Assembly (NCBI GenBank): GCA_048938105.1
Contig: JBHLMN010000012.1
Span: forward strand, 132,876-196,875
Source of the DNA: Promethearchaeota archaeon
GTDB taxonomy: Archaea > Asgardarchaeota > Heimdallarchaeia > Hodarchaeales > Hodarchaeaceae
Direction: 5' to 3'
DNA length: 64,000 bases
Shown: positions 6,574 to 28,742 of the stretch, piece by piece
How the letters are laid out: the number at the start of each line of letters is the position of its first letter
How positions within the stretch are numbered: the first letter of the stretch is position 1
Position numbers and translations under genes: made by a program
Notes under the pieces: generated by a model
Seen by the model: only the letters and a program-made list of their open reading frames with translations
Database searches by the model: none
Told to the model about the DNA's origin: nothing

Positions 6574-7209
6574 TCATAAAAATTGGCCCATCTCTCTAAT
6601 ATATGGAAGAAAAGAAGGTGTCCTATTAACACATTGCTGATATACTTCTCCAACTCTCTTAATTAAATCTTTATCTTCCATCTTTGCTCCAATAATGAAA
6701 GGAATGAAAGAAATCAATGCAATAAAGATTGCTAATAGATTATTCTTCAATAGAGCTAAACCTATAGCGAGAAAAAAATCTCCAGGATACATAGGGTGAT
6801 GAATATAGGAATAGATATCAGAAGTGACAGCCACTCCTTCTTCGGGAAATAACATATGGATCCCTAATCCATGTGCAATTTCATCAAATCCTGTTTTGCG
6901 TAGATGCTTCTCTAATAAAAACCGCATTAGAATGAAAAATATCCCTCCAATAAGAGCAGCTCAAAAAGGTATTAAAATTAGGCCGTTTATTAAAAGAGTA
7001 TGGAATATACAGGTATTGCCAGTAATAAGAACTGGAATTACATAATGAAAAAAGAAGTATCGATACGCTAAATCCCCATGTTTCTCTCGATAAGCCTTGC
7101 CTTTTGTAGCGAAACCAATAAAAAAGGACAAAGTGATGAGTACGAAAATCAATTGACAAATAATAGCCCCATACCAAGCTAAACCATCAAACCACCAGAA
7201 AATCCCCAT
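6574..7209 (-). pseudogene. ICMT/PEMT-family gene interrupted by an in-frame TGA (6961-6963)
   Basis: ORFs 6961..7209 and 6574..6927 are in the same frame (both upper ends divisible by 3), and my reading joins them as ...LILIPF-TGA-AALIGGIFFILMRFLL.... The distal part carries YIHHPMYPGDFFLAIG and MEDKDLIKRVGEVYQQ. The same frame continues upstream to the ATG at 7320 through a second in-frame stop (TAA at 7267-7269). Confidence 0.55.
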
Positions 7210-11272: not shown

Positions 11273-11914
11273 TCATATCAAAGAGAATTGAATCACTACA
11301 AAGAGCATGATACTAAATGTAATTACTGAAATCACTGTGTCGAATTTTCCTGTCTTTAGAAATGGGATAAATAATGGAGTTTTGCTTTTATAACTAGTAT
11401 AATCAGCGCCAAATTTCTTCAATAGGTACTGATCTTCTATAAGTGCAAGAATAATATAAGCCAGTAGTTGTAAATACCATAGTATTATTGTTTCTTCCGC
11501 TGACAGCCAACTCATACCAAAAAAGAAAGTAATATAAAAATAACTCCACCCTGTCAAGCCAATTGTCAAAAGTAGAAGACCAGTATACTGGGGATGTCTT
11601 ATAAATCGATAAGGGCCAGAGGTGACTAATCCCCTTCTCTTTTTTACGCCGAGATAAACAATTGAATAAATTATCAATACAACGCTTATCATAATCAAAA
11701 TTTTCCCAAAGAATACCTCATTAAAATTGAGAAGGCTGGCATAGCCTTCAATGATACTGCTAGAAAGATTGGGAACCAAGGCACCCAATAACAGAATTAC
11801 AGGAGCAGCCATGAGTGGTATCCATACCCAGATTCCTGGAAGTTGCTGAACTAAAAGAAATAAATATCCAGCCGTGCCAAAAACAATAGCTTGAGCTCTC
11901 TCTAGTTTTTTCAT
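11273..11914 (-). CDS. ICMT/PEMT-family membrane methyltransferase-like protein
   Basis: GPYRFIRHPQYTGLLLLTIG followed by EDQYLLKKFGADYTSYKSKTP. Multi-TM. Confidence 0.65.
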   Translation of the reverse strand: MKKLERAQAIVFGTAGYLFLLVQQLPGIWVWIPLMAAPVILLLGALVPNLSSSIIEGYASLLNFNEVFFGKILIMISVVLIIYSIVYLGVKKRRGLVTSGPYRFIRHPQYTGLLLLTIGLTGWSYFYITFFFGMSWLSAEETIILWYLQLLAYIILALIEDQYLLKKFGADYTSYKSKTPLFIPFLKTGKFDTVISVITFSIMLFVVIQFSLI

Positions 11915-12886: not shown

Positions 12887-13828
12887 TTAGCTTAATATTT
12901 CAATTAATTTGACCAAATCCTCTTTATTGATGGCAACAACATCTGCTTCAGGAAATATATTGCGGTTGTTTTCTGAAATTCCCTGTCCTCCGATTGCAAT
13001 ACGAATTTGGTTTTTGAAAACATTATGTAAATACTCTAAATTTCGTTTAAGAGTACCAAGATATAACGGAAGGGTAATGGAGATAAATATCCAATCAGGT
13101 AATTCAGGAAGATCTTTGATATATTTGATTAAGGATTGGATGGGTAAAGCTCGCCCCAGATTAATAATCTTGTAATTTAAATCCCGAAGAATATATTCTA
13201 AGGCAAATAAACTGAGAACATGTCTTTCACCTTCTACAGGTACTAAAATGATAATTCCTTTTTCCTCTATATTTTCATTTACTGGTATTCTTGCAACGAT
13301 TAGCTCTTCAACGCGATTAGAAATAATGTGTTCTTCCGCAGTTGAAAGATTCGCTTGAGCCCATTGTACACCGACCTCATGCATTAGTGGTGTGATAAAA
13401 TCAACAATAAAGGGTGTACTATTAGGAAACATTGATTCTATGTTTACTGAGAACTCCTCAACATCATAATTTGATGATTTCAGATATCTGATCATTTCTT
13501 GTATGGAGGCTAATTTTAAAACAGAGGGTTTTTCTATTCTTCCTTTCTCCTCAGGCTTCTTCTTTTCTTTTAATATCTCATTCTCATGTATATATAGTTC
13601 TTTGATTAGATCATCAGTTAAATATACAACAGTATACCGCCCCCGTTTAAGTGGGCGTCGTTCGATTTCGATATAACCTTGTAAATTTAGTTCTTTTATG
13701 GCATTAGAAATTGTTGAACGTTTAAGATCTAAATTGGATGCAAGTTCAGAAACAGGGACTTCCCTTCCGCGATTTTGCCTTAAGTATCGAAAAATACGAT
13801 CTCTGGCTGGTAATTGGACATTTTCCAT
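12887..13828 (-). CDS. CarH/LitR-like cobalamin-binding (putative light-sensing) regulator with an N-terminal winged-helix domain
   Basis: N-terminal wHTH (VPVSELASNLDLKRSTISNAIKELNLQGYIE). W156-x9-E166-H167 lies in VQWAQANLSTAEEHII. The B12-binding Rossmann part has GIIILVPVEGERH203VLS, ISITL and IAIGGQG. The gene sits immediately downstream of crtB. Confidence 0.7.
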   Translation of the reverse strand: MENVQLPARDRIFRYLRQNRGREVPVSELASNLDLKRSTISNAIKELNLQGYIEIERRPLKRGRYTVVYLTDDLIKELYIHENEILKEKKKPEEKGRIEKPSVLKLASIQEMIRYLKSSNYDVEEFSVNIESMFPNSTPFIVDFITPLMHEVGVQWAQANLSTAEEHIISNRVEELIVARIPVNENIEEKGIIILVPVEGERHVLSLFALEYILRDLNYKIINLGRALPIQSLIKYIKDLPELPDWIFISITLPLYLGTLKRNLEYLHNVFKNQIRIAIGGQGISENNRNIFPEADVVAINKEDLVKLIEILS

Positions 13829-13897
13829 AAGGCATTGTTACCTTCTTATTGATATTCTTATGATTTCTTCATGACTTACTCTTATTTTATGAACCAG

Positions 13898-14842
13898 CTA
13901 AAGTTTACGAAGGTACTCTAAACGTACTTTAGTTGCCAAAATAATCTTTCTTAGTTTAGAAACAACTGCCCGTTGATTTAATATTTGATAATCAATTCTT
14001 TTTATCTCATTTAGAATTTCCCCATAGACTCTTGAGGCCACTTTTACAGTATAAGCTCCTGCAGGTGGTAATTCCTCAATACCAAGATCAGCTATCTTAT
14101 AAAGAGCTTTCGCTCGCTCTGATTCGTAACGAATGAGTGATTTGAGGTTCTCATTCACTTTATCACCCCTTAGATCCTCAATCGTAACCTGATAATCATT
14201 CCGAGTTTCTTCTGGTAGATATATTCGCCCCTTGAGGAAATCCTCTTTGATATCTCTTAATATATTGGTTAATTGCATTGCTCTACCTAGATCTGCAGCT
14301 CGTGCTAGAGTTCGTTTTTCTGGATTTTTGATGAAGATGTGAGTCATCATTAAACCAACAGTACTTGCAACCCGATACATGTATAAGTCAAGTTCTTCTT
14401 CTGAATAGTACTCGGTTTTTATAAGATCCATTCTCACACCTTCTATAAGCTCATGCATGTAATTAACTGGAATTTGATGTTTACGTAACGTATCTCCAAA
14501 GGCATGAAGGATAGGATTTGTAGAGCTATATCCATTGGCCAATTTTGTTATAGTACTTTTCAATCGATCAAGTTCAAAATTAATCTTATCAATCGTAATC
14601 CCCTTAGGGGCTTCATCAACTATATCATCACTTAAACGACATATAGCATAGAGAGCAGCAACGCTTTTACGCTGATCTTCAGGTAAAAATCGACTAGCGA
14701 AATAGAATGACTTGCTATGCTCTATCATCCAGTCTAGACAGATTTGATAGCTTTCTTCAAGTGTTTCATCCATCAAACTATGTTTAGGTGTCGTACTTTT
14801 GGGAAGAAGTTCCCAATCAATTGTTTTGTGAGTTGAATACAT
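13898..14842 (-). CDS. crtB: Phytoene synthase
   Basis: Squalene/phytoene synthase motifs FYFASRFLP, YAICRLSDDIVDE (first Asp-rich) and NILRDIKEDFLKGRIYLP (second Asp-rich). Confidence 0.85.
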   Translation of the reverse strand: MYSTHKTIDWELLPKSTTPKHSLMDETLEESYQICLDWMIEHSKSFYFASRFLPEDQRKSVAALYAICRLSDDIVDEAPKGITIDKINFELDRLKSTITKLANGYSSTNPILHAFGDTLRKHQIPVNYMHELIEGVRMDLIKTEYYSEEELDLYMYRVASTVGLMMTHIFIKNPEKRTLARAADLGRAMQLTNILRDIKEDFLKGRIYLPEETRNDYQVTIEDLRGDKVNENLKSLIRYESERAKALYKIADLGIEELPPAGAYTVKVASRVYGEILNEIKRIDYQILNQRAVVSKLRKIILATKVRLEYLRKL

Positions 14843-14864
14843 TTTCTAATTCACTTATTAATAT

Positions 14865-14891
14865 TTCATGAATTAGTTCAACTTCATGAAT
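14865..14891. promoter_or_regulatory. Two copies of the 8-bp palindrome TTCATGAA in the divergent crtB / crtI promoter region (candidate operator)
   Basis: TTCATGAA at 14865-14872 and 14883-14890, 18 bp apart, both followed by T. They lie inside the 135-bp crtB-crtI intergenic region. Confidence 0.35.
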
Positions 14892-14977
14892 AAACATTTA
14901 AATATTTTTCGAATGTAGGTAATCAATCAAAAAAGTGTCATTTGTCAAGTAGACATTACTTTTTTGGATAAATAAAA

Positions 14978-16561
14978 GTGAGAAAAATGAGTAATGGACA
15001 TAATAAACGTAATATAGCCTTTGATAATAAAAACCCTGAAACGTTTCTCGAATCAGTGGTAATTATAGGCTCTGGGATTGGTGGACTGGCGGCGGGAATA
15101 CGCCTTCAGACAACAGGAAAATTTAATGTTACTATTATAGAAAAACTAGACCAAGTTGGTGGTCGGGCCAGAGTCTTTAAAGATCAAGGGTTTACTTTTG
15201 ATGGAGGTCCTACGGTAATAACTGTACCTGACATTTTTAAGGATTTATTTACTTTACCTGGTCGAAAAATGGAGGATTATGTCGAATTAATACCAGTGGA
15301 GCCGTTTTATCGAATCCATTTTAACGATGGGACATTTTTTGATTATTCTACTCCGGAAAAAAATATACCTCAAATTGAAAAAGTAAATCCTGAAGATGTA
15401 GAAGGATATAAACGCATGCTTAAAGCAGTTCGACCGATCTACGAGAAGGGGTTCAAAGAATTATCATTTAAACCTTTTAACAAGTTTACTTCAATGCTTA
15501 AAGTAGCTCCCTCCCTCATCAAGTTACAATCATACCGTTCAAATTATAAATTTGTCTCTAAATATATAAAAAATGAGAATCTCCGAATGGTATTTAGTTT
15601 TCACCCTTTACTTATTGGGGGGAATCCTTTCTCGGTTCCATCAATTTATAGTCTTATTCAATACCTGGAAAAAGAATTTGGAGTTTGGTTTGTGCGTGGT
15701 GGTACAAATGCTTTAGTTCAGGCGTTAGCAAACTTATTTGAGGAGCTTGGGGGTAAAATCATTTTGAATAGTGAGGTTAAAAAAATTGAAGTTAAAGATA
15801 ATCAAGTAGAGGGCGTTTTAACTGTTTCGAATGATTTTTATCCAAGTAAAATCGTAATAAGTAATGCTGACCCCGCTTTTACATACACAAAAATGATTGA
15901 TGCAGAGTGGCGCAGGAAAAACAGTGATAAGCGTTATAAAAAAGCGAAATATTCTATGGGATTAGTTGTAATTTATTTTGGAACGAAAAGACAATATCCA
16001 AATATGAAACATCACACTATTATTTTGGGTCCCCGGTATAAAGGACTAATAGAAGATATTTTCAAGAAAAAGATTTTAGCAGAAGATTTTTCGAGCTATT
16101 TACATCTCCCCACTCGGACTGATCCAAGTTTAGCTCCTGAAGGACATGAAGCCTTTTATATCCTGATTCCCGTCCCTCATCAAGATTCTGGTATTAATTG
16201 GGAAGAAATGGCTGAACCATTTAAACAACGAATCTTTGATTTTCTGAATGAAAATTATCTCCCTGAACTAAAAGAGAACTTAGTGACAGAGCGAATTTTT
16301 ACTCCTCTAGATTTTGAACGAGACTATAATAGCTTTAAAGGATCTGGTTTTTCTGTTGAACCAATTTTTACTCAATCAGCGTGGTTCCGTCCACATAACA
16401 AATCTGAAGATATTGATGGTCTTTATTTAGTGGGTGCTGGAACCCATCCAGGAGCAGGATTGCCTGGAGTTGTCTCCAGTGCAAAAGTAACCACAGATTT
16501 GATCATCAATGGGAAAAATGGATTTTCAAAAAAACCCTCTGGAATAAGTAATGCTAATTAG
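14978..16561 (+). CDS. crtI: Phytoene desaturase
   Basis: N-terminal FAD fold VVIIGSGIGGLAAGIRLQ, C-terminal LYLVGAGTHPGAGLPGV, and the length and order typical of CrtI. The track start is a GTG; the ATG at 14987 is likely. Confidence 0.85.
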   Translation: MRKMSNGHNKRNIAFDNKNPETFLESVVIIGSGIGGLAAGIRLQTTGKFNVTIIEKLDQVGGRARVFKDQGFTFDGGPTVITVPDIFKDLFTLPGRKMEDYVELIPVEPFYRIHFNDGTFFDYSTPEKNIPQIEKVNPEDVEGYKRMLKAVRPIYEKGFKELSFKPFNKFTSMLKVAPSLIKLQSYRSNYKFVSKYIKNENLRMVFSFHPLLIGGNPFSVPSIYSLIQYLEKEFGVWFVRGGTNALVQALANLFEELGGKIILNSEVKKIEVKDNQVEGVLTVSNDFYPSKIVISNADPAFTYTKMIDAEWRRKNSDKRYKKAKYSMGLVVIYFGTKRQYPNMKHHTIILGPRYKGLIEDIFKKKILAEDFSSYLHLPTRTDPSLAPEGHEAFYILIPVPHQDSGINWEEMAEPFKQRIFDFLNENYLPELKENLVTERIFTPLDFERDYNSFKGSGFSVEPIFTQSAWFRPHNKSEDIDGLYLVGAGTHPGAGLPGVVSSAKVTTDLIINGKNGFSKKPSGISNAN

Positions 16562-17385
16562 TGGAAGAAATTGTAATGTTAACATATTTCATCTTCCTCC
16601 TTTTCTTTATTGTTATACCTTTGATGGTAATCAGTTTTTTTTATTATAAGAAATATCGTGGAGGGGAAGAATATCAAAAAACGATGATAAAAAAAATCTT
16701 AATTGTGTTAGCGATATTAATAATTGTAGCTATTACTTATACTACTCCATGGGATAATTTTCTCGTCGAAAATGGCATTTGGTATTATGAGACATCGAAA
16801 GTTATGGGTATTTTAATTGGTTTTGTACCCATTGAAGAATATGGCTTTTTCGTATTGCAGACTCTCTTTATTGGATTGCTATTCGGATGGATTCTGCTTC
16901 ATAGAAAGAAAATCAGTCATAATCAGAATAATTTTAGAGTTAATTTACGCCTGATTTCAGCGATTGGGCTACTTATTGTTTGGATTGTAGGATTTCTTGC
17001 ATTTATTAACAGAATAGAAACTTTAACTTATCTGAATTTAATCCTTTTATGGGGAATACCTCCAATAATGATTCAACTGATCTATGGCGCTGATATTCTC
17101 TGGTTGTACAATCGAGACCTTATCTCAGTCATCTCTCTCTCAACTATTTACTTAGCTATTGCAGATACTATTGCGATTGCAGATGGAATCTGGACAATTA
17201 GTATAAATACATCAACAGGGATTCTTTTGGCTGGAGTTTTACCTATTGAAGAGTTTGTCTTTTTCTTGGTCACTAATATATTAATTACTTTTGGATTAAC
17301 CTTAATGATTGATTCTAGGAGTATTGATAGATTTCATCAATACTTTTCTAGATTAAAAGAACACAAGTGGAGAAATAAGTTATGA
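16561..17385 (+). CDS. crtY: Lycopene cyclase, fused CrtYc/CrtYd (heterodimer-type) domains
   Basis: Polytopic protein with two repeats of the lycopene-cyclase-domain pattern (TPWDNFLVENGIWYY ... PIEEYGFF; second half PIEEFVFF). Likely ATG at 16576. Follows crtI directly. Confidence 0.75.
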   Translation: MEEIVMLTYFIFLLFFIVIPLMVISFFYYKKYRGGEEYQKTMIKKILIVLAILIIVAITYTTPWDNFLVENGIWYYETSKVMGILIGFVPIEEYGFFVLQTLFIGLLFGWILLHRKKISHNQNNFRVNLRLISAIGLLIVWIVGFLAFINRIETLTYLNLILLWGIPPIMIQLIYGADILWLYNRDLISVISLSTIYLAIADTIAIADGIWTISINTSTGILLAGVLPIEEFVFFLVTNILITFGLTLMIDSRSIDRFHQYFSRLKEHKWRNKL

Positions 17386-17502
17386 CCAGTAGAATTTTTG
17401 TACAGGAATTGTATACATGCTTCAAAAATTTAGAAAACTGCAATATGAAGATATATTGGGAATACCTCCCTTTCTTTAACTCACACAATTTGAGGTAATT
17501 TC

Positions 17503-17955
17503 ATGTTAAATAACGTAATAGAATATCTTAATGAGTCTGTAATACCTTTGCGGCTTTCTGGTACCACTAAATCAGGCTGGCCATTTGTAATGAGCCTTTG
17601 GTATGTTTATTTAAATGAAAAAATTTACTTAGCAACTATAAAATCAGCTAAAGTCGTTGATTATCTTTCTAATAACCCCAAATGTGCTTTTGAAATTGCC
17701 AGTGATACTCCACCTTATTGTGGGATTCGAGGACAAGCAATGGCAAAAATTATTGAATCTAAGGGGGATGAAATTCTAAAAATCCTTCTAAATCGTTATC
17801 TAGGAGGAGAAAATAGTCCTTTAGCCCGAAGACTGTTGAATCAACGTATACCAGAGGTTGCGATTGAGCTTACTCCTGTTAAAGTGTATCAATGGGATTA
17901 TAGTAAGCGAATGATTGACTCGATTGAATTTTCTTCAGTTAAAAAGTGTCCATAA
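17503..17955 (+). CDS. PPOX/FMN-binding split-barrel family protein
   Basis: About 150 aa. GWPFVMSLWYVYLNEKIYLAT and IRGQAMAKI resemble PPOX-like proteins. Confidence 0.45.
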   Translation: MLNNVIEYLNESVIPLRLSGTTKSGWPFVMSLWYVYLNEKIYLATIKSAKVVDYLSNNPKCAFEIASDTPPYCGIRGQAMAKIIESKGDEILKILLNRYLGGENSPLARRLLNQRIPEVAIELTPVKVYQWDYSKRMIDSIEFSSVKKCP

Positions 17956-17992
17956 ATAAGAACGATAAAAAAACCAGTAAAAAGGTGATATT

Positions 17993-18412
17993 ATGTCAGA
18001 TATCAAATATTCTGCTGGAGTATGCAATATCGGTGACGCTGAAATAAAACAAAGACGTCGATTAGGATATATAGGCATTGGTCTTACTGTGATAGCAATT
18101 ATTGTATATTTAGGATTGATTTATTCTATAAAATTAGATCCATTCTTTGGAGTGATTATTTTCATACCTGCTGAAATGTCAGCTATTGGGTTAATTCAAG
18201 CTAGGAACAAATTTTGCGCTGCTTATGGATTGATTCACCAACAGAACGTTTCCTCAAGCTTAGGCTTAACTGTGAAAATAGGCAATAAAAATTCCCAGAG
18301 AAAGGATAGGAACAAAGCTCTTAAAATTATTTTTCAATCCCTAGTAATTGCGATTATCATTACTGTTTTTACAGTTATTGGAGGGATTTTGATAGCTCAA
18401 AGTATTATTTAG
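17993..18412 (+). CDS. Small membrane protein (3 TM), unknown function
   Basis: Hydrophobic helices. The N-terminal CNIGDAEIKQRRRLG resembles YgaP-like/DUF2892 small membrane proteins (weak recollection). Confidence 0.35.
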   Translation: MSDIKYSAGVCNIGDAEIKQRRRLGYIGIGLTVIAIIVYLGLIYSIKLDPFFGVIIFIPAEMSAIGLIQARNKFCAAYGLIHQQNVSSSLGLTVKIGNKNSQRKDRNKALKIIFQSLVIAIIITVFTVIGGILIAQSII

Positions 18413-18501
18413 GTTTGAATATAGGTTGAAAAAAAGCATAAGAGATAAATATGAATCAAATCAATATACTCAATCTTAGGGAGAGGATTTTTCCTACTCC
18501 A

Positions 18502-19239
18502 TTAAAAAATTCGTCCTAGTGACGCGTCTAAGATTTTTCCAGTCATTAGAGGAGTAGTTGCAGCAAATTCTATCATTTCATTCAAATCCTTAGGTAATAA
18601 TGGGTAATTAAGAAGCTGTTTTGATATTAATTTCGATGATAGAACCTCAATTGTTGTACCATTATCCATAGATTTCTTTTCCAATTCTCTATTATGTCGA
18701 TCCGTAAAAACATATGTAGGAGAAACTCCGTTAATTCGAATTTTGGGAGCCAAAACTCTAGCCATTGTACGAATTAAATAGACTAATCCAGCTTTCGCAA
18801 CTCCATAAGGCATTTTATCCAATGAAGGTTCATAAGCAGCAGAACTAACGATATGTACTATAGCTCCGCCTTCTATCATAAGTTCAGCTGCCATTCTTGT
18901 TAATAAGAAAGCAGATGTTAGATTCACATTTATTACACGATTGAAAAATGAAGCATCCACTTCTAATGGATTTTTTGAAGCCAAGGATCCCCCTATATTA
19001 TTTATCAGAATGTCTATTGATCCAATTTTAGTCTGTACCCATTTCTTTACCTTTCTAATTCCTTCCTCGGTTGTGCAATCAGCTGCAATATTATTAATTC
19101 CTGGAAAACGATCATTTATCATATTTAGACTGGATATGAGAACCTCATTATTCTGATTAGAAAGTTTTCTCATAATTGCCTCTCCAATCCCTCCAACAGC
19201 AACACCAGTAACTAGAATTTTCTTATTTTCGATGATCAT
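18502..19239 (-). CDS. Classical short-chain dehydrogenase/reductase (SDR)
   Basis: TGxxxGxG (ILVTGVAVGGIGEAI), NNxG-like LINNIGG, catalytic S...YGVAK (YxxxK). Confidence 0.8.
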   Translation of the reverse strand: MIIENKKILVTGVAVGGIGEAIMRKLSNQNNEVLISSLNMINDRFPGINNIAADCTTEEGIRKVKKWVQTKIGSIDILINNIGGSLASKNPLEVDASFFNRVINVNLTSAFLLTRMAAELMIEGGAIVHIVSSAAYEPSLDKMPYGVAKAGLVYLIRTMARVLAPKIRINGVSPTYVFTDRHNRELEKKSMDNGTTIEVLSSKLISKQLLNYPLLPKDLNEMIEFAATTPLMTGKILDASLGRIF

Positions 19240-19284
19240 GATTAATTTCCTCAGTTATGTTGTTAATGGTTTAATTTATTACAT

Positions 19285-19773
19285 CTAGTCATCTATTTTC
19301 AGAGTTTGAGTTTTAAGTAATTTATAATTTTTAGGAAATCCCCAATCTTCAATCTTATTGTAACTTGTTTTTTTTGATCGAAAATGTACCCATATTGTTG
19401 TACTATCAAGAAGTGGATTAGCATGGTAATGCTTTTGATCACCATATCGAAAAGCTTCTAGTACTAGGGGTAATTCCTGACGAAAAATTCTATCACGAAA
19501 CTTTAAAGGGCCAATTCCCCCACTTACTTGACAATAGACATGGAGTGAATATACATTTTCGGTTTTCAACCATTCAGCTAACACTTCATCCCGCATTATC
19601 CGTGTTTGCCATCCTTTTAGTTGTTTTTTGTTAAACTCATGGGCAATGGTGAGAAATAAATCTCCTGTCCGATCTGAATGGGTTAATGTATAGCAACGAG
19701 GTACTAGAGGAGAATCAATGGTTGTTGGGGGTATAAATGTAACATTTAGTTTATTTGGGTTTAAGCGATTCAA
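19285..19773 (-). CDS. Staygreen (SGR) family protein, Mg-dechelatase homolog
   Basis: PRCYTLTHSDRTGDLFLTI, QLKGWQTRIMRDEVLAEW, SLHVYCQVSGG, ELPLVLEAFRYGD and IWVHFRS...KIEDWG are collinear with the plant SGR core as I remember it (PRRYTLTHSD..., LQGW...RDEVVAEW, LHVHCHISGG, ELPVVLKAF.HGD, VWVYFHS...ECWG). Confidence 0.75.
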   Translation of the reverse strand: MNRLNPNKLNVTFIPPTTIDSPLVPRCYTLTHSDRTGDLFLTIAHEFNKKQLKGWQTRIMRDEVLAEWLKTENVYSLHVYCQVSGGIGPLKFRDRIFRQELPLVLEAFRYGDQKHYHANPLLDSTTIWVHFRSKKTSYNKIEDWGFPKNYKLLKTQTLKIDD

Positions 19774-19799
19774 GGTAGAAATCCTTCTATTTGAAAGAA

Positions 19800-21302
19800 C
19801 TAAGTTGTAGATAAATAATAGGGCTTAGGAGTAGAGCTTATTTTAGTATATGTAAGACTATCTCCAGGAATATCCCTACAAATTTCCTCTAACAGCTTTT
19901 TTGACAGCATGTCGAAAAATGGTTGGATCATAAACCAATAGGCTATCCCAATAAGCCCTTTTGGGACTATTCGAAAAATCTGATGAAGTTCAATTTTTTT
20001 GTGATTAATACGCCTTAAACGATATCTTAGGATGGTATAACCAGGTAAGATGAAATCTGTATGTAATGTTAATTCTTTCTTTGGAATTTTATTCTGAATT
20101 GAAAGAGGAGTCTTTTTCATCTCTCCCTTGTCCTTAAAACCTTTGAAAAAACCGTTTAGAAAAGCACCAAATTTCCATAAGTATAAATTGATCTGAAAAT
20201 TTCTATATTTCTCAATCTGAAGTAATTTGTTCCACAAATTCTCAGGATTACTAGTTAAAATAGCCTTACGATGATCTTGGAAGACAAATCCTCCAGACCA
20301 GGATGGATCCCCTGGAATGTGCCATTCAACGGGTAAATCATAATAGCTAGAATAACTTCCGTACCTAAGATACTGTTGGGGGTTTAATGCTAATCGAATT
20401 GCTTGTTTATGGTTTAGTAACTTCTGTGGAATCAATTCTCGTATCCTAAAATCATGACAAACAACCTCATTCTTCATTCCATCTATTAATGGACGAGCTA
20501 AAGATGATTGAATGCCTGTAATCAATCTTATCCAATAGGAGCTTAGGCTAGGAGTGAAGAAAGGGATAGGGAGAATTAAACGCTTTGGTAGTGCCATAAT
20601 TTCCACATAACTCTCCATAAACTGTTTATAAGTGATAATATCTGAACCACCAATATCAAAGGTCTCACCGATTGTTTCTGGTACATCTAAACAGTCAGTT
20701 AGATATTTCAGAACATTTCGAATAGCTATTGGTTGATTTCTTGTTCTAAGCCACTTGGGTGTAATCATAATTGGCAATCTATTGACTAGATACCTCATCA
20801 TCTCAAAAGCTGCGCTTCCACTCCCAATAATAATTGCTGCACGTAACGTTGTAACTGGTACTGAACATGAATTCAGTATTCTGGAAACTTCGATTCGAGA
20901 CTGTAGATGCTTACTTAATTTTTCTTTTTCGTCCCCTAATCCCCCAAGATAAATAATTCTTTCAATTGCTGCCTTTTCAGCTGCAATTATTGTGTTTTGG
21001 GCTGCAATTCTATCAGATCTAATAAAATCTTTTATTTTTCCTTCCATAGAATGGATTAAATAGTAAACCGAGGAGACTTCTTCCATTGCGTCTTCTAAGG
21101 TTTTAATATCGAAAACATTAAGATTTACCGTTTTCAAATTCCTATGATGACTCCATAATCTCATATTTAGCTTGTCTTTTGACCTAAACCCCACTCGTAC
21201 AATATATCCTTTCTTTAAGAGTTTTGGTACAAGTCTGGAACCTATGTAACCTGTGGCCCCAAGTACAAGAACTTCTTTTTGTTTCAAGGGAAATCTACTC
21301 AT
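19800..21302 (-). CDS. NAD(P)-binding Rossmann protein (atypical/extended SDR, NmrA/epimerase-like) with a long C-terminal extension (DUF2867-like?)
   Basis: N-terminal VLVLGATGYIGSRLVPKLLKKGY (GxxGxxG). The roughly 200-aa C-terminal part has no motif I can name; the DUF2867-like assignment is from memory of similar architectures. Confidence 0.55.
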   Translation of the reverse strand: MSRFPLKQKEVLVLGATGYIGSRLVPKLLKKGYIVRVGFRSKDKLNMRLWSHHRNLKTVNLNVFDIKTLEDAMEEVSSVYYLIHSMEGKIKDFIRSDRIAAQNTIIAAEKAAIERIIYLGGLGDEKEKLSKHLQSRIEVSRILNSCSVPVTTLRAAIIIGSGSAAFEMMRYLVNRLPIMITPKWLRTRNQPIAIRNVLKYLTDCLDVPETIGETFDIGGSDIITYKQFMESYVEIMALPKRLILPIPFFTPSLSSYWIRLITGIQSSLARPLIDGMKNEVVCHDFRIRELIPQKLLNHKQAIRLALNPQQYLRYGSYSSYYDLPVEWHIPGDPSWSGGFVFQDHRKAILTSNPENLWNKLLQIEKYRNFQINLYLWKFGAFLNGFFKGFKDKGEMKKTPLSIQNKIPKKELTLHTDFILPGYTILRYRLRRINHKKIELHQIFRIVPKGLIGIAYWFMIQPFFDMLSKKLLEEICRDIPGDSLTYTKISSTPKPYYLSTT

Positions 21303-21314
21303 TCTAAGAGGACA

Positions 21315-22085
21315 TCAATAATCTTGACGAGCTTTCCAGAAATCACCATAAAAGAAAAATCCAATCAGTTGAGAAAATACGAATATTATTGATATAACTA
21401 TTCCTAAATACTGTAATATAAGAATTTGATTACTATGGAAGATATACAGAGGGATAAAGTTCAATAAGAACCAAATCCACGAAAGAATTGGAGCAGATAT
21501 GAACATAAGAGATCTTTTCCATTTTGAAACAGATAAGAAGGAACTCAAATCATATTTTATTCCAAAAATAGGAAGTTTCGTTATAGGTGTCCAAGCTAGC
21601 AAGTTTGATTTACGAAATGTGGATTTGAAAATAAAATAATTTCTAAAGTTTAATCCTAAAAGAAAACCAAATATGCAATGGATTACGGTATGAGAGAGCA
21701 TAAAGTTTACAAAACTGATTAGAAAGAACAAAATAACACTAAACCAAAAATCTACAGAAAAATAAAAGGCTAAAAAATAAAGAATTTCTGAGATGAGAAC
21801 ACCAACTGAGAATAGTAAAGTTCCGACTTTAATTGAAAATTTTGGAACGTTCCAACTATCGAAGAAGAATTCATCAATTCTCCCTAAAATATCTATTTCT
21901 TCCTCTGTTATTTTTACTTTTCGTGCATATTTTACAGCAGTTTGATATTTTCTCCAATGACTCTTCCGATTTAATGTTCCTGTTTCATATGAATCCTCTA
22001 AATCCTTGATATTCCTACTAAAATTAGTGTTATCCATTTGAGAACCTTCCCTAGAACTGTAGTTCTTATTAGTTATACTTAACAT
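21315..22085 (-). CDS. Membrane protein (about 5 TM) with an intramembrane HxxxH motif, unknown function
   Basis: Soluble charged N-terminus of about 75 aa, then TM helices. LSHTVIHCIFGFLLG sits in a helix. The gene lies 59 nt downstream of heliorhodopsin. Confidence 0.5.
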   Translation of the reverse strand: MLSITNKNYSSREGSQMDNTNFSRNIKDLEDSYETGTLNRKSHWRKYQTAVKYARKVKITEEEIDILGRIDEFFFDSWNVPKFSIKVGTLLFSVGVLISEILYFLAFYFSVDFWFSVILFFLISFVNFMLSHTVIHCIFGFLLGLNFRNYFIFKSTFRKSNLLAWTPITKLPIFGIKYDLSSFLSVSKWKRSLMFISAPILSWIWFLLNFIPLYIFHSNQILILQYLGIVISIIFVFSQLIGFFFYGDFWKARQDY

Positions 22086-22144
22086 TATAATTCTAGTGAT
22101 CGAGGTTTGAAAATAAAAAGAGGGGAAGGATCATAATGACCCAA

Positions 22145-22957
22145 TTAAGCAAATATTAACCCCATAAATACAATCCAAGCTAATGCTGATTTTGCAAAGA
22201 GGCTTAATAATTGATAACCTCGTTCTCCATATAGATAATCTTTCCATGGGCCTATTTTCTTATACTGAAGAAACATATTCAAGGCAAAGCTGTTAAAGAA
22301 GACGAAATAAACTACTAAGGCAATATAGACAAAAGTAGGAACTTCTCGTCCAACTGTGTTAATACTCAAGAATGTATCAAGGATGACGATCCAGGGCATT
22401 ATTCCAGCTATCCATCCTAGGATATAAGGAGCCCAGCTTGTTTTTTCAGTATATTGGTTATAAGTCTCCATTAACAACCCAAACATGTTCATTAATCCAT
22501 TAAGCACGAATATCAGAGCAAGAATCCAAAATTCTAGTATTCCAAAAGCTAAAGCAATGAATATGATCATCACTGAACTGGAAAAAGCATACTCATACCA
22601 ACGTACTGGATTCATTTCTTTCTTTAAATTGGTAACATATTTGTTATATAATGGAAAAGCAATCAGTAAATGAGCAATAGCTGACATTAGAAGAAAACTA
22701 GCAAGCAGGATACCTGCAATGTTTTCAAAAGTGAAAAAAACTTCGGGGATAGGCTCAAGAACTGGACGAGTACCAGTTAATTCTTTTATTCCTAAATACG
22801 ACCTATAAATGTCGATTTTGAAGTTTTTTATTTCATCAATTACTAAACTCAGAGCAAATATAACTGTTGCTTGCACTAAGTGCAAGATACCCATGGCTAT
22901 ATTGAATTTCCGGAGATAGGAAAATGATATTTTTGACTTTTCAATGTTAGTTGACAT
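22145..22957 (-). CDS. Heliorhodopsin
   Basis: Seven-TM protein collinear with heliorhodopsin 48C12 as I recall it. LRKFNIAMGILHLVQ matches LQNFNRIAGVFHLLQ. NPVRWYEYAFSSSVMIIFIA matches NIFRWVEYSLSSSVMIVLIA (counterion Glu = E122, codon 22592-22594). FFNSFALNMFLQYKKIGPWKDYLYGERGYQLLSLFAKSALAW matches FFNSFALVQYLQYKGKGKWSNYLRGERAYIVLSLVAKSALAW (Schiff-base Lys = K256, codon 22190-22192). Confidence 0.85.
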   Translation of the reverse strand: MSTNIEKSKISFSYLRKFNIAMGILHLVQATVIFALSLVIDEIKNFKIDIYRSYLGIKELTGTRPVLEPIPEVFFTFENIAGILLASFLLMSAIAHLLIAFPLYNKYVTNLKKEMNPVRWYEYAFSSSVMIIFIALAFGILEFWILALIFVLNGLMNMFGLLMETYNQYTEKTSWAPYILGWIAGIMPWIVILDTFLSINTVGREVPTFVYIALVVYFVFFNSFALNMFLQYKKIGPWKDYLYGERGYQLLSLFAKSALAWIVFMGLIFA

Positions 22958-23176
22958 TAAGCAACCTCCTATGGATTTAGACAGAAGAGTCCTTCTTTAT
23001 ATATTCATTATGATAATTAAAACGTAAATCACCAATAAATCTAGATCTAGAATTAATGACTTGAATCAGGATGAAGTTCTATTACTGAAAAAATAAAGAA
23101 TCTATTATAATGTGAACCTAAAACTTGCTGATTGATGAACTAGTACTTCTAAAATCACAAAGAATGGTGAAGGCTG

Positions 23177-23953
23177 ATGTCTCTTACAAAACAAAAACAA
23201 TTTTTGATTTATGGTAACATCTTGAGCTTTTTATTAACTATCGTGATGAATTCTTTAGCCAACATCCTTCCTTTGAATGGAAAAACAACTGCAGAACTCA
23301 GTGACTCTTTCCCTAACTTATTTGTCCCCGCTGGGTATGTTTTTAGTATCTGGGGATTGATCTACATTTTATTAGCAATTTTCACGGTTTCCCAAGCCCT
23401 TCCCAAGTATAGAGAGGAGGATGTTATTGAAAAAATCTCCTATTTCTTTATTATAAGCAATCTGGCTAATTCATCATGGATTGTATTTTGGCACTTTGAA
23501 ATAATAATCGCATCCTTATTGGTTATGTTGATACTCCTTGTATCTTTAATACTAATCTATACCCGATTAGAAATTGGAAAGAAGCCCGTGAGTGAAAAAA
23601 TTAAGATCACTTCTCATATCCCATTTAGTGTTTACCTGGGATGGATTACTGTTGCAACTGTTGCAAATGTTACAGCTTTACTTGTATCAATAAACTGGGA
23701 TGGTTTTGGCATAAGTGAAGTCATCTGGACTGCAGTTGTAATAAGTGTTGCAACAATAATTGCACTAGTTATCGTATTCACCCGGAAAGACTATGCCTAC
23801 GTTCTTGTCCCCGTCTGGGCTTTTATAGGAATAGCAGTAAAGCAATTAAATACTCAAAACGATGTTGTTATAATTTCTGTTATAGCAGCAGTTATTTTAG
23901 TCATAACATTGCTTGTTAGACTTTCATTGGATTTAGTTCAGAATCGAAAATGA
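23177..23953 (+). CDS. TspO/MBR-related (tryptophan-rich sensory protein-like) membrane protein
   Basis: LFVPAGYVFSIWGLIYILLAIF, NSSWIVFWHFE and PFSVYLGWITVATVANV resemble the roughly 260-aa TspO-like family found in bacteria. Confidence 0.5.
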   Translation: MSLTKQKQFLIYGNILSFLLTIVMNSLANILPLNGKTTAELSDSFPNLFVPAGYVFSIWGLIYILLAIFTVSQALPKYREEDVIEKISYFFIISNLANSSWIVFWHFEIIIASLLVMLILLVSLILIYTRLEIGKKPVSEKIKITSHIPFSVYLGWITVATVANVTALLVSINWDGFGISEVIWTAVVISVATIIALVIVFTRKDYAYVLVPVWAFIGIAVKQLNTQNDVVIISVIAAVILVITLLVRLSLDLVQNRK

Positions 23954-24834
23954 ATGATAATAATTTTAGATCACTAATTACTTCACTCATAATAATATGC
24001 ATTGCTGCATGTCTTGCACTCATTGGTAGCCACAGGGGTATAACTGTTTTTGGTGGAATACCAGTATTTGCACTTGGAGTAGCTATTGCCTTTATAATTC
24101 AATGGATTGCGTTTATACCTGCTTATATCAAAAGAACAGAGAAATTTTTCGATTTGACTGGCTCTTTGACTTACAGTATTGTGATTATTTTTTCAGTTGT
24201 TTTGAGTTCTGAAATCAATATACGATCTATTTTACTGATGTTTTTGGTCTTGATCTGGGCGATTCGCCTTGGTATGTTCTTGTTTAGGAGAATACTGAAA
24301 GAGGGTGAGGATAAACGCTTCAAGGAAATCAAAGAATCAGGTTCGCGTTTTCTATTAACTTGGACTCTTCAAGGTTTGTGGGTTAGCTTTACATTAGCAG
24401 CTGCATTGGCTGCGATCACAGTAAAACAGAGGGTAGAATTTGGCGTCTTTGGTTTAATTGGTCTTCTGGTTTGGATCATAGGCTTTGGATTTGAAGCTGT
24501 TGCAGACTATCAGAAGAGTAAATTCAGATCTATTCCTGAAAACAAAGGAAAATTTATTACTACTGGATTATGGTCGATATCACGACATCCCAATTACTTT
24601 GGAGAGATCCTCCTATGGATCGGTATTGCAATCATTGCACTTCCAACACTTCAAGGTTGGAGATGGCTAACACTAATTTCTCCTATTTTTGTCACATTAT
24701 TATTGACCAAGGTTAGTGGTATTCCATTACTTGAGAAACATGCAGATGAAAAGTGGGGTGGTCAGGAGGAATATGAGCAATACAAAAGTAAGACTCCAGT
24801 ATTAATCCCAAGGCCATTCTTCAAATCAAATTAA
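23950..24834 (+). CDS. DUF1295 / steroid 5-alpha-reductase-ICMT superfamily membrane protein
   Basis: GLWSISRHPNYFGEILLWIG and EEYEQYKSKTPVLIP. Overlaps the TspO-like gene by 4 nt (ATGA). Confidence 0.65.
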   Translation: MNDNNFRSLITSLIIICIAACLALIGSHRGITVFGGIPVFALGVAIAFIIQWIAFIPAYIKRTEKFFDLTGSLTYSIVIIFSVVLSSEINIRSILLMFLVLIWAIRLGMFLFRRILKEGEDKRFKEIKESGSRFLLTWTLQGLWVSFTLAAALAAITVKQRVEFGVFGLIGLLVWIIGFGFEAVADYQKSKFRSIPENKGKFITTGLWSISRHPNYFGEILLWIGIAIIALPTLQGWRWLTLISPIFVTLLLTKVSGIPLLEKHADEKWGGQEEYEQYKSKTPVLIPRPFFKSN

Positions 24835-26468: not shown

Positions 26469-27239
26469 ATGTATATCGAAAAAGATGAAAATAAAACTCT
26501 AGGGGAGGAAATTAGAAGTGAAAACTCCATCAATTTAGTAGTGACAACTTTTCTATTAGGTGTGAGCATTTATGTAGTGGCCCAGCTTATCGGAATATTT
26601 CTTACTACTGAATCATTTGGTCCAATTATCGAAGGAGGAAATGTGTCAAAACTGTTATTAACTCAGTCAATGTTTCTGTTTCTCTCTCTTGTCACTATAT
26701 TTTTTCTGACTAAAGGAAAATTAACTCACTATGGATTAAATAAACCTATCGGAGCAGTAAAATGGGGATATATTATTGGATTAGGATTATTGATTGGTTC
26801 AATTGCTACCATCCTCATTATTGTAACAGGAGCAAATGGAAATCCTGCTTTAACAGGTCTAGGTATTAGAGAAAAAATAGTCTTACTTTGGTTTTTAGCT
26901 AGTATAGCAGAAGAAGTTTTCGTTAGAGGTTTATTACAGGGGTATCTGAATCCTCTAGAGGGTATGAAAATTAGTATTGGTAAGCAAAATTTCTCATATC
27001 CAGTTGTTTTCAGTGCTATATTTTTTGGTACCATCCATCTACCGCTAGTATTTTTTGGGGCAGACCTTATCACAATTTGTATTATCTTTTCAATGACAAT
27101 AACTCTGGGTTTCTTTACAGCCTCTTTACGAGAGAAATATCAAAGTATATTACCTTCAATTGGCATTCATATTACAACAAATATTGGAGGAACAATGCTA
27201 GGTCCAATAATATATGCAATCTTGGTAGGATCAATTTAA
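26469..27239 (+). CDS. CPBP family (CAAX-protease/Abi-like) intramembrane metalloprotease
   Basis: EEVFVRGLLQ (EExxxR), FGTIH and a late conserved His (IGIHITTN) in a polytopic protein. Confidence 0.65.
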   Translation: MYIEKDENKTLGEEIRSENSINLVVTTFLLGVSIYVVAQLIGIFLTTESFGPIIEGGNVSKLLLTQSMFLFLSLVTIFFLTKGKLTHYGLNKPIGAVKWGYIIGLGLLIGSIATILIIVTGANGNPALTGLGIREKIVLLWFLASIAEEVFVRGLLQGYLNPLEGMKISIGKQNFSYPVVFSAIFFGTIHLPLVFFGADLITICIIFSMTITLGFFTASLREKYQSILPSIGIHITTNIGGTMLGPIIYAILVGSI

Positions 27240-27557: not shown

Positions 27558-28742
27558 ATGGAAAATCAAAATAAAGGAAGTAGTTGGTTTATTTTCTCTA
27601 CACCAGCTATTCTTGCTGCGGGTTATCTTTCATTGCAATTTTTAATCGAATTCCTTGTAGCATTGCTGCTTTTTATCGTTCAATTAACCGATGATATTGT
27701 GATAAGTAAGTTTATTGTCTTAATTATTAGTCAGATGCTTCTTACCGTGATAATTATCTTTGTGATAACCCCTTTCCTGAAAATTAAAGATGTTGAGTTT
27801 ACTACTGTTAGCTATACTAGTTTTCTAAAATTTATTGCAGTTTTTTGTCTATTCTGGGCGATTACGATACCTATTACCCTAATTTTTTCAGTTTTTTCCA
27901 CTAATTTCAGTATAGGGGAAGCAATCTATGAAAAAACATTACCACTGTCGATCGGTCATCGTGGAAATCTATTCTCAGTCATCATGTGGTTACTAGCTGG
28001 TACTCTAAGCTTTGCCATATTTATGGAATATTTATTTCGAAGAACATTGATACCATTATTCGAAAAGCGTGGTTTATCTCCTTTTGCTGCAGTTATCACT
28101 TCAAGTATTGCTTTTGCTTTAGTTAGCATACCAAATTATCTCGGAATCCAACTAACAATTCTTACAGAATCCAACTTATTAATTCTATATTTTAGTAGAT
28201 ATGGATTATTAAATTCACTTTTCTGTTCCTTAAACCTTTTTATGACAACATTTATCCTTGGAATGGCTTGTGGAATTGTATATATCCTAACAAGAAATGT
28301 CATATTTTCAATTATGGTACATTGTCTTGGTATACTTCCCTACTACTTGATAGATTTATTTCATGATAATATTATGTTCGATTTATTGTTAGGTATTTTA
28401 ATTATTGTGATTAACATTTCAGGCCTTCTTGTTGCCTTATTCACGAGTCATACTATTTTTAAAGCTTCATCCCAGACTGACTGGATTACTATCCTTAAGA
28501 AAAAGTCGGAAGTAAACATCAATCGCGGAATAACTGGATTCTTTATTACTTTTTGGGGAATAATTATTAATATTGTGATATTCATTGGTTTACTTGCCGA
28601 ACATGCTCCTATTATAGTTGCTCTATTGTTTAATATTATATTTCTTGGATTTTGCACTAAATATTTACGAGAAGATTCAATAGAGGATAAATCACCCACT
28701 GATCATAATGAAATGAAAGAATATGGTGAAATAAGTGAATAG
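27558..28742 (+). CDS. CPBP family-like intramembrane protease (divergent)
   Basis: MEYLFRRTLIP (E-x-x-x-R with the first Glu pair degenerate) and SIMVHCLG in a 394-aa polytopic protein. Confidence 0.45.
   Translation: MENQNKGSSWFIFSTPAILAAGYLSLQFLIEFLVALLLFIVQLTDDIVISKFIVLIISQMLLTVIIIFVITPFLKIKDVEFTTVSYTSFLKFIAVFCLFWAITIPITLIFSVFSTNFSIGEAIYEKTLPLSIGHRGNLFSVIMWLLAGTLSFAIFMEYLFRRTLIPLFEKRGLSPFAAVITSSIAFALVSIPNYLGIQLTILTESNLLILYFSRYGLLNSLFCSLNLFMTTFILGMACGIVYILTRNVIFSIMVHCLGILPYYLIDLFHDNIMFDLLLGILIIVINISGLLVALFTSHTIFKASSQTDWITILKKKSEVNINRGITGFFITFWGIIINIVIFIGLLAEHAPIIVALLFNIIFLGFCTKYLREDSIEDKSPTDHNEMKEYGEISE

Follow-up and report, generated by a model that had tools for sequence, protein, structure and literature searches.

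A probable light-response island of an Asgard archaeon groups a Staygreen homolog with heliorhodopsin and a B12-type regulator

Introduction

Two open questions meet in one archaeal locus: what heliorhodopsins do, and why bacteria and archaea that do not photosynthesize keep a homolog of the chlorophyll Mg-dechelatase known as Staygreen (SGR). The locus lies in a stretch of 64,000 nucleotides (the window) from a Promethearchaeota archaeon (GenBank assembly GCA_048938105.1, contig JBHLMN010000012.1, positions 132,876 to 196,875 of the forward strand), in which 13 substantial, consecutive open reading frames (ORFs), exactly those listed in a sequence-only reading of this DNA, fill positions 12887–24834 (Table 1). 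Profile searches agree with that reading in its calls of heliorhodopsin (HeR), Staygreen, the carotenoid enzymes CrtB, CrtI, and CrtY, an SDR oxidoreductase, and a DUF1295 protein; its calls of a TspO-like protein, a PPOX-like flavoprotein (PNPOx-like in the present analysis), and a B12-type regulator found support of a weaker kind, the matches to PNPOx_N and B12-binding being below cut-off.

The most useful result is a conserved association of Staygreen with either a heliorhodopsin or a B12 photoreceptor, which extends to NmrA/DUF2867, TspO-like, and DUF1295 proteins and includes the locus of the validated enzyme. That the region is a real, functionally linked light-response island is held with considerable confidence. 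It is favored, by a moderate degree, as a composite light-response and photoprotection island in which the Staygreen module would handle photosensitizing tetrapyrroles under light control; that demetalation of tetrapyrroles is gated by heliorhodopsin itself is a tentative proposal, and rather doubtful.

Staygreen and light sensors across species

One genome per species was scanned with the Staygreen profile; at least 515 relatives were confirmed, and the best 80 loci, from Asgard archaea, Bathyarchaeia, Hadarchaeota, Chloroflexota, Actinomycetes, and others, many of them on short contigs, were kept and searched with the proteins of the window and a few extra families (loci are cited by their L numbers). 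At least one of five light markers is present in 35 of the 80, namely heliorhodopsin (18 loci), photolyase (12), a B12 regulator (10), UvdE (5), or CrtB (4). The light and pigment theme put forward from the sequence holds. The other families of the window found near Staygreen are NmrA/DUF2867 (13 loci), DUF1295 (12), and the TspO-like protein (9); further neighbors are MFS transporters (16), DUF1475 (11) and DegV (10) proteins, alpha/beta hydrolases (8), and DUF1731 epimerases (8). With a genome size of 1.5 Mb or above, chance alone would, by our own estimate and not by a computed control, bring a single-copy gene to within 10 kb of another in some 1% of cases.

Heliorhodopsin and Staygreen genes lie on the same strand, with gaps of −103 to +123 bp, in 11 of the 80 loci: one from Hodarchaeota (L013), one from Hadarchaeota (L060), and nine from Chloroflexota (Anaerolineae and Dehalococcoidia). 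In a metagenome scan anchored on heliorhodopsin, Staygreen is the next gene downstream in 5 of 80 loci; crtI-crtB-UvdE are upstream in several of these 80, and photolyase, Rieske, or DUF1295 genes are present in others. The heliorhodopsin–Staygreen pair is the best-supported link of this analysis and apparently an unreported one, and the sequence-only reading did not single it out. That reading had called the grouping unusual; this does not hold for the part in which heliorhodopsin adjoins carotenoid, photolyase, and UvdE genes, as such neighborhoods are already published (PMC8612252; PMC11109279). No paper in the literature searched, subscription papers lying outside its scope, names both heliorhodopsin and any of dechelatase, Staygreen, and PF12638. 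Staygreen is not among the ten published neighbor groups of 448 heliorhodopsins (PMC11109279), the supplementary neighbor table of PMC8612252 may list it, and none of the words “gene cluster,” “operon,” and “rhodopsin” occurs in a 2026 preprint on how prokaryotes break down chlorophyll.

Heliorhodopsin and the B12 regulator co-occur in none of the 80 Staygreen loci, with about two overlaps expected by chance, which hints that they serve as alternative light inputs; to have both in one island is a peculiarity of the window and its close relatives. An example with a B12-type regulator is L041, where CarH, a DUF1731 epimerase, a 147-aa gene, an amine oxidase, and photolyase are followed, further along, by SGR, NmrA, and MFS genes. 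In L087, Rieske/VanA_C, tocopherol cyclase, and UvdE genes precede, at some distance, MFS, alpha/beta hydrolase, HeR, and SGR genes.

Tocopherol-cyclase-like, MFS, and Rieske/VanA_C genes recur with SGR in Chloroflexota (L087, 2412–10474; L006, 5486–10510; L004, 7910–12989), the alpha/beta hydrolase being present in L087 as well, and tocopherol-cyclase-like and MFS genes also recur in one Heimdall genome. As a set, tocopherol cyclase, MFS, Rieske, and hydrolase bear a loose likeness to phytol recycling and the SGR-PPH-PAO route of plants, the hydrolase recalling pheophytinase and the Rieske protein PAO. That the latter is in fact a PAO was considered and dropped: Pfam shows VanA_C and no PaO domain.

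The Staygreen homolog and the characterized enzyme

The Staygreen protein of the window matches the solved structure 7Y5Y over its full length (residues 1–152, E 1e-45). Among 18 Staygreen homologs, R26, Y28, T31, H32, S33, D34, R61, and D62 show no variation, T29 is kept in at least 90%, and the invariant D112 corresponds to D114 of 7Y5Y; the catalytic residues D34 and D62, and the structural residues R26, Y28, T29, and the D114 equivalent, as defined in PMC8531759, are thus all retained. That study showed that AbSGR-h of Anaerolineae is an active Mg-dechelatase which acts on chlorophylls (PMC8531759). The residue numbering of 7Y5Y (T31, H32, S33, D34, S35, T36, E38, L39, F40, W55, R58, F59, M60, R61, D62, and D114) equals that of AbSGR-h, by which 7Y5Y appears to be the active enzyme. 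A protein 100% identical to 7Y5Y is encoded in L076 (36–7954), at the end of a one-strand array of photolyase, SDR, NmrA/DUF2867, DUF1475, DegV, TspO-like, DUF3159, and SGR genes. Therefore, the characterized enzyme keeps the same neighbors as the Staygreen of the window, that is, the sole prokaryotic Staygreen with proven Mg-dechelatase activity shares the company of the archaeal gene.

The likeness to plant SGR and to AbSGR-h lies in a full-length domain that keeps both catalytic Asp residues and the structural ones. The plant pathway differs in that the host here is a non-phototrophic archaeon and that PPH, PAO, and RCCR are missing from the window; of a plant-type PAO/phyllobilin pathway the window has SGR, with no hydrolase or Rieske homolog. 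As to domain architecture, 966 representatives were examined for long proteins with an N-terminal Staygreen domain, and the partner domain in these is DUF3888, FG-GAP, or DUF4397, not heliorhodopsin; DUF3888 is C-terminal on several Staygreen proteins of the prokaryotic type, collagen-like repeats occur in one, and FG-GAP or DUF4397 in others (P0185, P0201, P0205, P0213, P0236, P0238, P0305).

The neighbors of Staygreen could also be read in nutritional terms: the module would take up and degrade chlorophyll from phytodetritus as a source of carbon, nitrogen, or phytol, and light sensors would lie nearby only by way of the lit habitat. Bacterial SGR loci with MFS (16 of 80), alpha/beta hydrolase (8 of 80), Rieske, and tocopherol-cyclase-like genes would be an echo of the plant steps and of phytol recycling, and the 2026 preprint reports prokaryotic chlorophyll degradation with SGR homologs that include one Asgard order. 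However, a homolog search of the window returned none of these four families (nor photolyase or UvdE), the VanA_C domain of the Rieske protein speaks against a PAO, and the operon-level pairing of Staygreen with heliorhodopsin and with CarH-photolyase arrays favors light control over a shared habitat. A nutritional role is, on balance, unlikely.

Layout of the island and recurrence in Asgard genomes

The island consists of three modules. In the first (A), the carotenoid divergon, crtB and then the regulator gene are read from the minus strand, divergent from crtI, crtY, and the genes of 150 and 139 aa on the plus strand. The second (B) is the heliorhodopsin array on the minus strand, in which heliorhodopsin, a membrane protein with an HxxxH motif (TM240), NmrA/DUF2867, Staygreen, and the SDR converge on the crtI-crtY-150aa-139aa unit. 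The third (C) is the TspO-like–DUF1295 pair, divergent from heliorhodopsin, with a TspO-like member that is putatively of the porphyrin-binding type. Base composition is uniform (GC 0.31–0.37 across the window), and the island is therefore not compositionally foreign; recent horizontal acquisition was considered and found no support, as neither GC nor skew is anomalous in the window. The nearest homologs of several island proteins are from Hodarchaeales, Hermodarchaeota, Promethearchaeota, and Heimdallarchaeota (as named in the sources), and the host is an Asgard archaeon. A scan of the window for sigma-70 promoters and hairpin terminators, models that are ill-suited to archaea, gave results at shuffle level.

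Table 1. Genes and candidate operator of the island (positions in the window)
Feature	Length (aa)	Position	Strand	Evidence
Winged-HTH regulator with CarH-type B12 module	313	12887–13828	−	HTH_11 31.5 bits; downstream of crtB, same strand
Phytoene synthase CrtB	314	13898–14842	−	SQS_PSY 248 bits; CrtB and HpnD models 150–221 bits
Candidate operator, crtB/crtI spacer		14865–14904		TTCATGAA palindromes at 14865–14872 and 14883–14890; TATA-like TTTAAATA at 14897–14904
Phytoene desaturase CrtI	527	14978–16561	+	TIGR02734 604 bits; Amino_oxidase 127 bits
Lycopene cyclase, two fused CrtYc/Yd-type domains	274	16561–17385	+	TIGR03462 111 bits, two stretches
PNPOx/FDOR-like split-barrel protein	150	17503–17955	+	PNPOx_N 20.8 bits, below cut-off
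Small membrane protein	139	17993–18412	+	Family-less
Classical SDR oxidoreductase	245	18502–19239	−	adh_short 110 bits
Staygreen (SGR) Mg-dechelatase homolog	162	19285–19773	−	PF12638 166 bits
NmrA/atypical-SDR NAD(P)-binding protein with DUF2867-like C-terminal domain	500	19800–21302	−	NAD_binding_10 53 bits, NmrA 44 bits, DUF2867 20.8 bits (weak)
Orphan Asgard membrane protein (“5-TM HxxxH,” TM240)	256 (longest ORF)	21315–22085	−	S-H-x3-H motif invariant
Heliorhodopsin	270	22145–22957	−	PF18761 286 bits (cut-off 26.7), residues 15–267
Distant TspO/MBR-like membrane protein	258	23177–23953	+	TspO_MBR (PF03073) 27.9 bits (cut-off 24); divergent from heliorhodopsin
DUF1295 membrane protein, steroid-reductase/ICMT-like superfamily	294	23950–24834	+	DUF1295 237 bits

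The linkages recur in related genomes, as the sequence-only reading had proposed to compare, and relatives add photolyase and UvdE to the island. In L001-3/L010 (86% identity for Staygreen and 94% for heliorhodopsin), DUF1295 and TspO-like genes are divergent from heliorhodopsin, TM240, NmrA, and SGR, beyond which come an SDR gene, photolyase, UvdE, and the genes of 139 and 150 aa. The complete Heimdall genome CP070695.1 has two loci, one with the order DUF1295-tocopherol cyclase-SGR-MFS-HeR-137aa-UvdE-photolyase, the other (L090) with crtB and the regulator divergent from crtI-crtY-118aa-TspO-like-TM240-NmrA and an SGR fragment nearby. In L172 (Hodarchaeales), crtB and the regulator are divergent from crtI, crtY, genes of 398, 150, and 139 aa, UvdE, and photolyase, after which SGR follows, and loci from Odin and Promethearchaeota have heliorhodopsin and Staygreen as divergent neighbors. 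Chance does not account for the grouping: these genes are found together again in other Asgard genomes and partly in Chloroflexota and other archaea. The island is a mosaic.

The fragment in L090 (1354–1596, minus strand) is an 80-aa piece of Staygreen beside the crt/B12-regulator cluster, whereas the intact SGR of this genome adjoins heliorhodopsin at a distance of about 1 Mb; the fragment suggests a past arrangement like that of the window which was later broken up. An unannotated family of 344–398 aa, without Pfam match, was also noticed in these loci (L172, 5241–6437; L008, 8946–9980; L004, region of 16801–17859); it lies directly upstream of Staygreen in Chloroflexota and inside the crtI-to-photolyase unit in a Hodarchaeales genome, and is absent from the window.

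The mosaic nature of the island could be taken to mean that there is no functional unit at all, that is, 13 independent light- or lipid-related genes came to lie together by chance in this lineage and the common theme is over-read. The photolyase and UvdE of relatives are absent here, a heliorhodopsin 94% identical to that of the window lies by a transposase, gene order varies among genomes, and several assignments (TspO-like, PNPOx-like) are weak. Against this, the same families re-associate, in other orders and on other strands, across Asgard archaea, Bathyarchaeia, Hadarchaeota, and Chloroflexota, and heliorhodopsin is found within 18 of the 80 SGR loci where our own estimate of chance is about 1%. 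A mere chance grouping is thus very improbable.

The carotenoid divergon and its B12-type regulator

The sequence-only reading had named the regulator CarH-like. The motifs of its B12 module, its light-response signatures, and its predicted fold bear this out; its DNA-binding domain does not. The N-terminus matches winged helices of the HTH_11, MarR_2, ArsR, and TrmB types, and profile searches gave no match to a MerR-type DNA-binding domain. Because this domain is a winged helix and not MerR, membership in the CarH family is ruled out, and the regulator is an analog of CarH. The B12-binding profile matches with 25.7 bits, where the cut-off is 32.1, and B12-binding_2 is likewise below the Pfam cut-off. 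The Wx9EH motif (W156-x9-E166-H167), which together with the B12 motif separates true CarH photoreceptors from B12-independent paralogs (PMC9304148), is invariant in 21 Asgard homologs, as are G-E-R-H203, SxT (S250), and GG (G280/G281). The lower-ligand motif reads E-R-H203-V-L-S...S250-I-T...G280-G281; compared to the consensus D/ExHx2G/P-x41-SxT/V-x22-27-GG it has Ser where Gly/Pro is expected, and the spacer given there as 41 is 43 long. All four published signatures of B12 photoreceptors (GxxW, EH, GxxH, and GxxxP; PMC11796333) are present, as GVQW, EH, GERH, and GRALP, and archaea do not figure in the SignatureFinder survey of such photoreceptors. The best fold matches of the AlphaFold2 model (pLDDT 85) are photocobilins (8J2W/X/Y), CtMerR (8JBS), AerR (7TE2), CarH (5C8x/8C3x), and LitR, with E values of 2e-9 to 2e-7 and target TM-scores up to 0.73, a range in which the B12 domains of methionine synthase (MetH) score as well. 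The family comprises 32 clusters in 5.8 billion proteins, all of them from Asgard archaea, Kariarchaeaceae included.

The spacer between crtB and crtI holds two copies of the palindrome TTCATGAA, and the TATA-like box TTTAAATA begins 6 bp past the second. This paired motif is kept in four Asgard lineages, the distance between copies being 18 bp for the window and L172 and 19 bp for L090 (Heimdall), with three copies in an Odin locus (L173) and a one-mismatch copy in another locus (L174); we infer that it is a candidate repressor site beside the promoter. All remaining exact copies in the window are within ORFs, and there is no enrichment of the motif in the window (61 matches at one mismatch, 58.8 expected). 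It was not found in the spacer between heliorhodopsin and the TspO-like gene, which has conserved blocks of its own. A role of TTCATGAA as island-wide operator, and with it a single B12 regulon, is therefore unsupported; where an integrated regulon had been proposed from the sequence, the evidence points to separate control units.

For module A itself, a B12-dependent light switch is quite probable. The divergent arrangement of crtI-crtY and crtB-regulator is retained in five Asgard lineages, and the crtI unit of L172 extends, no gap exceeding 54 bp, as far as UvdE and photolyase, a gene content that is classic for CarH/LitR regulons. With the CarH/LitR systems of Thermus, Myxococcus, Bacillus megaterium, and Streptomyces the divergon shares the motifs of the B12 module, the light-response signatures, and the fold, the position of the regulator gene beside crt genes, repeated candidate operator sites over the promoter, and, in relatives, photolyase and UvdE in the crtI unit. 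It differs from them in several respects: the regulator is a winged-helix protein (HTH_11/MarR/ArsR-like) where theirs are MerR, its family is confined to Asgard archaea, the candidate operator consists of paired 8-bp palindromes by an archaeal TATA box instead of the direct repeats of CarH, and, besides the deviations in the B12 motif, cofactor binding and light response are here predicted.

CrtB, CrtI, and the lycopene cyclase have family-level profile matches above cut-off, their product specificity being putative; Pfam missed crtY, which overlaps crtI by 1 base, and its match to Lycopene_cyc is weak. The nearest solved protein to the 150-aa product is Rv2991 (1RFE; E 1.5e-4), and its gene travels with that of the 139-aa membrane protein in L001, L013, L172, and L090. 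The latter protein has no Pfam or NCBIfam match; its gene adjoins UvdE and photolyase in L001, L004, L013, and L172. In the spacer between crtY and the 150-aa gene there is an imperfect inverted repeat (17400–17420), TGTACAGGAATTGTATACA, which is unrelated to TTCATGAA.

Heliorhodopsin and the array behind it

The heliorhodopsin of the window, for which exact look-up gave no sequence record, aligns with TaHeR (6IS6) at E 3e-61, including AKSALAW with the retinal Lys and RWYEY with the counter-ion Glu. From what is known of TaHeR and 48C12 we take these to be the Schiff-base Lys of TM7 and the counter-ion Glu of TM3. Heliorhodopsins bind and regulate glutamine synthetase, photolyase, and an ABC transporter encoded by their neighbors (PMC11109279), and a role in photo-oxidative stress has been proposed in the literature. 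The island resembles the published neighborhoods (HeR-photolyase, HeR-glutamine synthetase, HeR-ABC, and the Zn-finger HeRs) in that heliorhodopsin lies among photoprotection genes, retains both chromophore residues, and has same-strand neighbors that are plausible partners; it differs in that the recurrent neighbor is Staygreen, with NmrA/DUF2867 and the TspO-like protein.

Homologs place the start of the HxxxH protein, next in the array, at 22037, which gives 240 aa. Its family is limited to 23 clusters, all Asgard, and its invariant residues are H116, H120, D55, K161, R175, N193, and D232. There is no Pfam match even at E≤10, and the AlphaFold2 model (pLDDT 91) has no PDB fold match at E<1, the best being a weak SpoIVFB-like overlap (TMq 0.33); its identity as a Blh-like carotene oxygenase is, for this lack of Pfam and PDB fold matches, pure speculation. 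The genes beyond it are separated by gaps of 12, 26, and 45 bp. The HxxxH gene always has NmrA/DUF2867 behind it (window, L001, and L090), and the latter gene adjoins SGR in six Chloroflexota loci (L008, L021, L041, L056, L058, L063); the best solved matches of its product are NDUFA9-like chains.

The proximity of carotenoid genes and a retinal protein suggests another use for this array, namely chromophore supply. The HxxxH, NmrA/DUF2867, Staygreen, SDR, and TspO-like proteins would then act on carotenoids, not tetrapyrroles, and would cleave or tailor beta-carotene to yield retinal or an antenna carotenoid for heliorhodopsin, with the orphan HxxxH protein as the missing carotenoid-cleaving enzyme. 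A cyclized carotene is made, yet profile searches found no gene of the Blh/Brp or CCD families in the island or its flanks; in CP070695.1, TspO-like, TM240, and NmrA genes follow crtI-crtY on one strand, the invariant H-x3-H and the conserved Asp, Asn, and His of the orphan fit a membrane metallo-enzyme, and CrtB adjoins Staygreen in L032 and L043. Tomato SGR1, moreover, reportedly binds phytoene synthase. The orphan, however, resembles no carotenoid oxygenase in sequence or fold and is limited to its 23 Asgard clusters where HeR–SGR pairs are widespread; Staygreen retains all residues required for Mg dechelation, its characterized relative acts on chlorophylls, and crt genes are missing from most HeR–SGR loci. 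Chromophore supply therefore appears improbable as the common function.

The TspO-like protein and DUF1295

The TspO-like protein is best described as a distant TspO relative with an added C-terminal membrane part. TspO_MBR is matched by seven of ten members of its family, which is well conserved, 250–300 aa long, and present in Asgard archaea, Bathyarchaeia, and Chloroflexota. Compared to typical TspO the protein is about 85 residues longer, the extra part being a C-terminal membrane region, and thus does not have the five-helix form of 150–170 aa; neither its sequence nor the family profile matches the PDB at E≤1, and alignment with hhalign to an approximate sequence of RsTspO gave only E 0.02. 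The gene adjoins SGR in L051, L071, L079, and L086. It is overlapped by 4 bases by the DUF1295 gene, whose product has a weak likeness to membrane NADPH-dependent sterol and steroid reductases.

The Rhodobacter crt cluster contains tspO (crtK), and the linkage of a TspO-type protein to carotenoid genes is common to both systems; the protein of the window differs in its length and in being distant, and the host lacks bacteriochlorophyll synthesis as far as the window shows. DUF1295 is also a member of the sigmaE-ChrR and SAK1 singlet-oxygen regulons, a DUF1295 gene of Chlamydomonas being induced by singlet oxygen in a SAK1-dependent manner (PMC4067076).

A model for the function of the island

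The favored reading, a composite light-response and photoprotection island, may be put as follows. In the dark, the regulator would sit on paired TTCATGAA by the TATA box and block crt transcription; in the light it would be released, and pigments of the beta-carotene type would be made, along with, in relatives, UvdE and photolyase from the crtI unit. Modules B and C belong to a set of genes that accompany Staygreen in many non-phototrophic microbes, one of two light sensors, heliorhodopsin or a B12 regulator, lying beside them. In the lit cell, Staygreen would strip the metal from photosensitizers of the chlorophyll type that came into the membrane or arose there, the TspO-like, NmrA/DUF2867, SDR, and DUF1295 proteins would handle pigment or damaged lipids, and heliorhodopsin would sense light and bind and tune a partner, as other heliorhodopsins do with partners encoded by their neighbors. 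It is conceivable, if doubtful, that heliorhodopsin and Staygreen form a conserved light-gated pair which, with the TspO-like and NmrA/DUF2867 proteins, demetalates and disposes of chlorophyll-type pigments only when lit, in non-phototrophic Chloroflexota, Asgard, and other archaea. What the sequences show is the gene content, the conserved synteny and operator-like motif, and the retained catalytic and chromophore residues; light regulation, the substrate of Staygreen, and any contact between the two proteins are inferred.

A number of observations weigh against this picture. Forty-five of the 80 SGR loci, many of them on short contigs, have none of the five light markers, the locus of a complete Thor genome among them, and 29 have none of the tested neighbor families. 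The data do not point to B12 control of modules B and C, because the spacer between heliorhodopsin and the TspO-like gene has no operator motif. Staygreen of the window is three genes away from heliorhodopsin, not adjacent, and heliorhodopsin may be a separate transcript, since the gap of about 107 bp to the HxxxH gene (start at 22037) holds a T-tract and a TATA-like TTATAA box. The locus with a 94%-identical heliorhodopsin (L092, 6884–13064) is without island genes; there, the gene lies by a DDE transposase and JAB/ThiF(E1)/E2-like ubiquitin-type genes. Pheophytin remains a photosensitizer, and removal of Mg alone is no detoxification; neither a PPH-type hydrolase nor a PAO-type oxygenase is encoded in the window, and there are no Staygreen–heliorhodopsin fusions among the 966 representatives. 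The light role of these archaeal genes is predicted from sequence, and dechelation of chlorophyll by bacterial homologs is possibly promiscuous, according to published work.

Flanking genes

Outside the island, four genes of ICMT/PEMT-like membrane methyltransferases (3445–4125, 5802–6482, 6574–6927, and 11273–11914) and two of Rce1-like CAAX prenyl proteases (26469–27239 and 27558–28742) were noticed; ICMT and Rce1 are the eukaryotic pair of post-prenylation processing, which may be of interest to studies of Asgard genomes. Other neighbors are an LCM methyltransferase (4166–4993), an SRPBCC protein (5318–5770), and a second, stronger PNPOx gene (2664–3185). A DNA glycosylase of the Fpg/Nei type, for the repair of oxidized bases, is encoded 13 kb downstream of the island (38061–38903, minus strand).

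Implications

With heliorhodopsin and Staygreen paired in 11 species of several phyla, and with a crystallized and assayed enzyme of Anaerolineae encoded in a photolyase/TspO-like array, both questions raised at the outset are testable with existing reagents, and the assays developed for heliorhodopsin with photolyase, glutamine synthetase, and an ABC transporter are applicable. If true, a light-gated heliorhodopsin–Staygreen pair would be the first physiological role for a prokaryotic Staygreen and a new class of effector for heliorhodopsin, and it would hint at the sort of ancestral context in which plants came by their SGR. The winged-helix B12 regulator, specific to Asgard archaea and with a conserved candidate operator, would be an archaeal counterpart to CarH and a candidate switch for green light. 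As to Asgard biology, the island is additional, concrete genetic evidence for life in lit, oxygen-exposed habitats.

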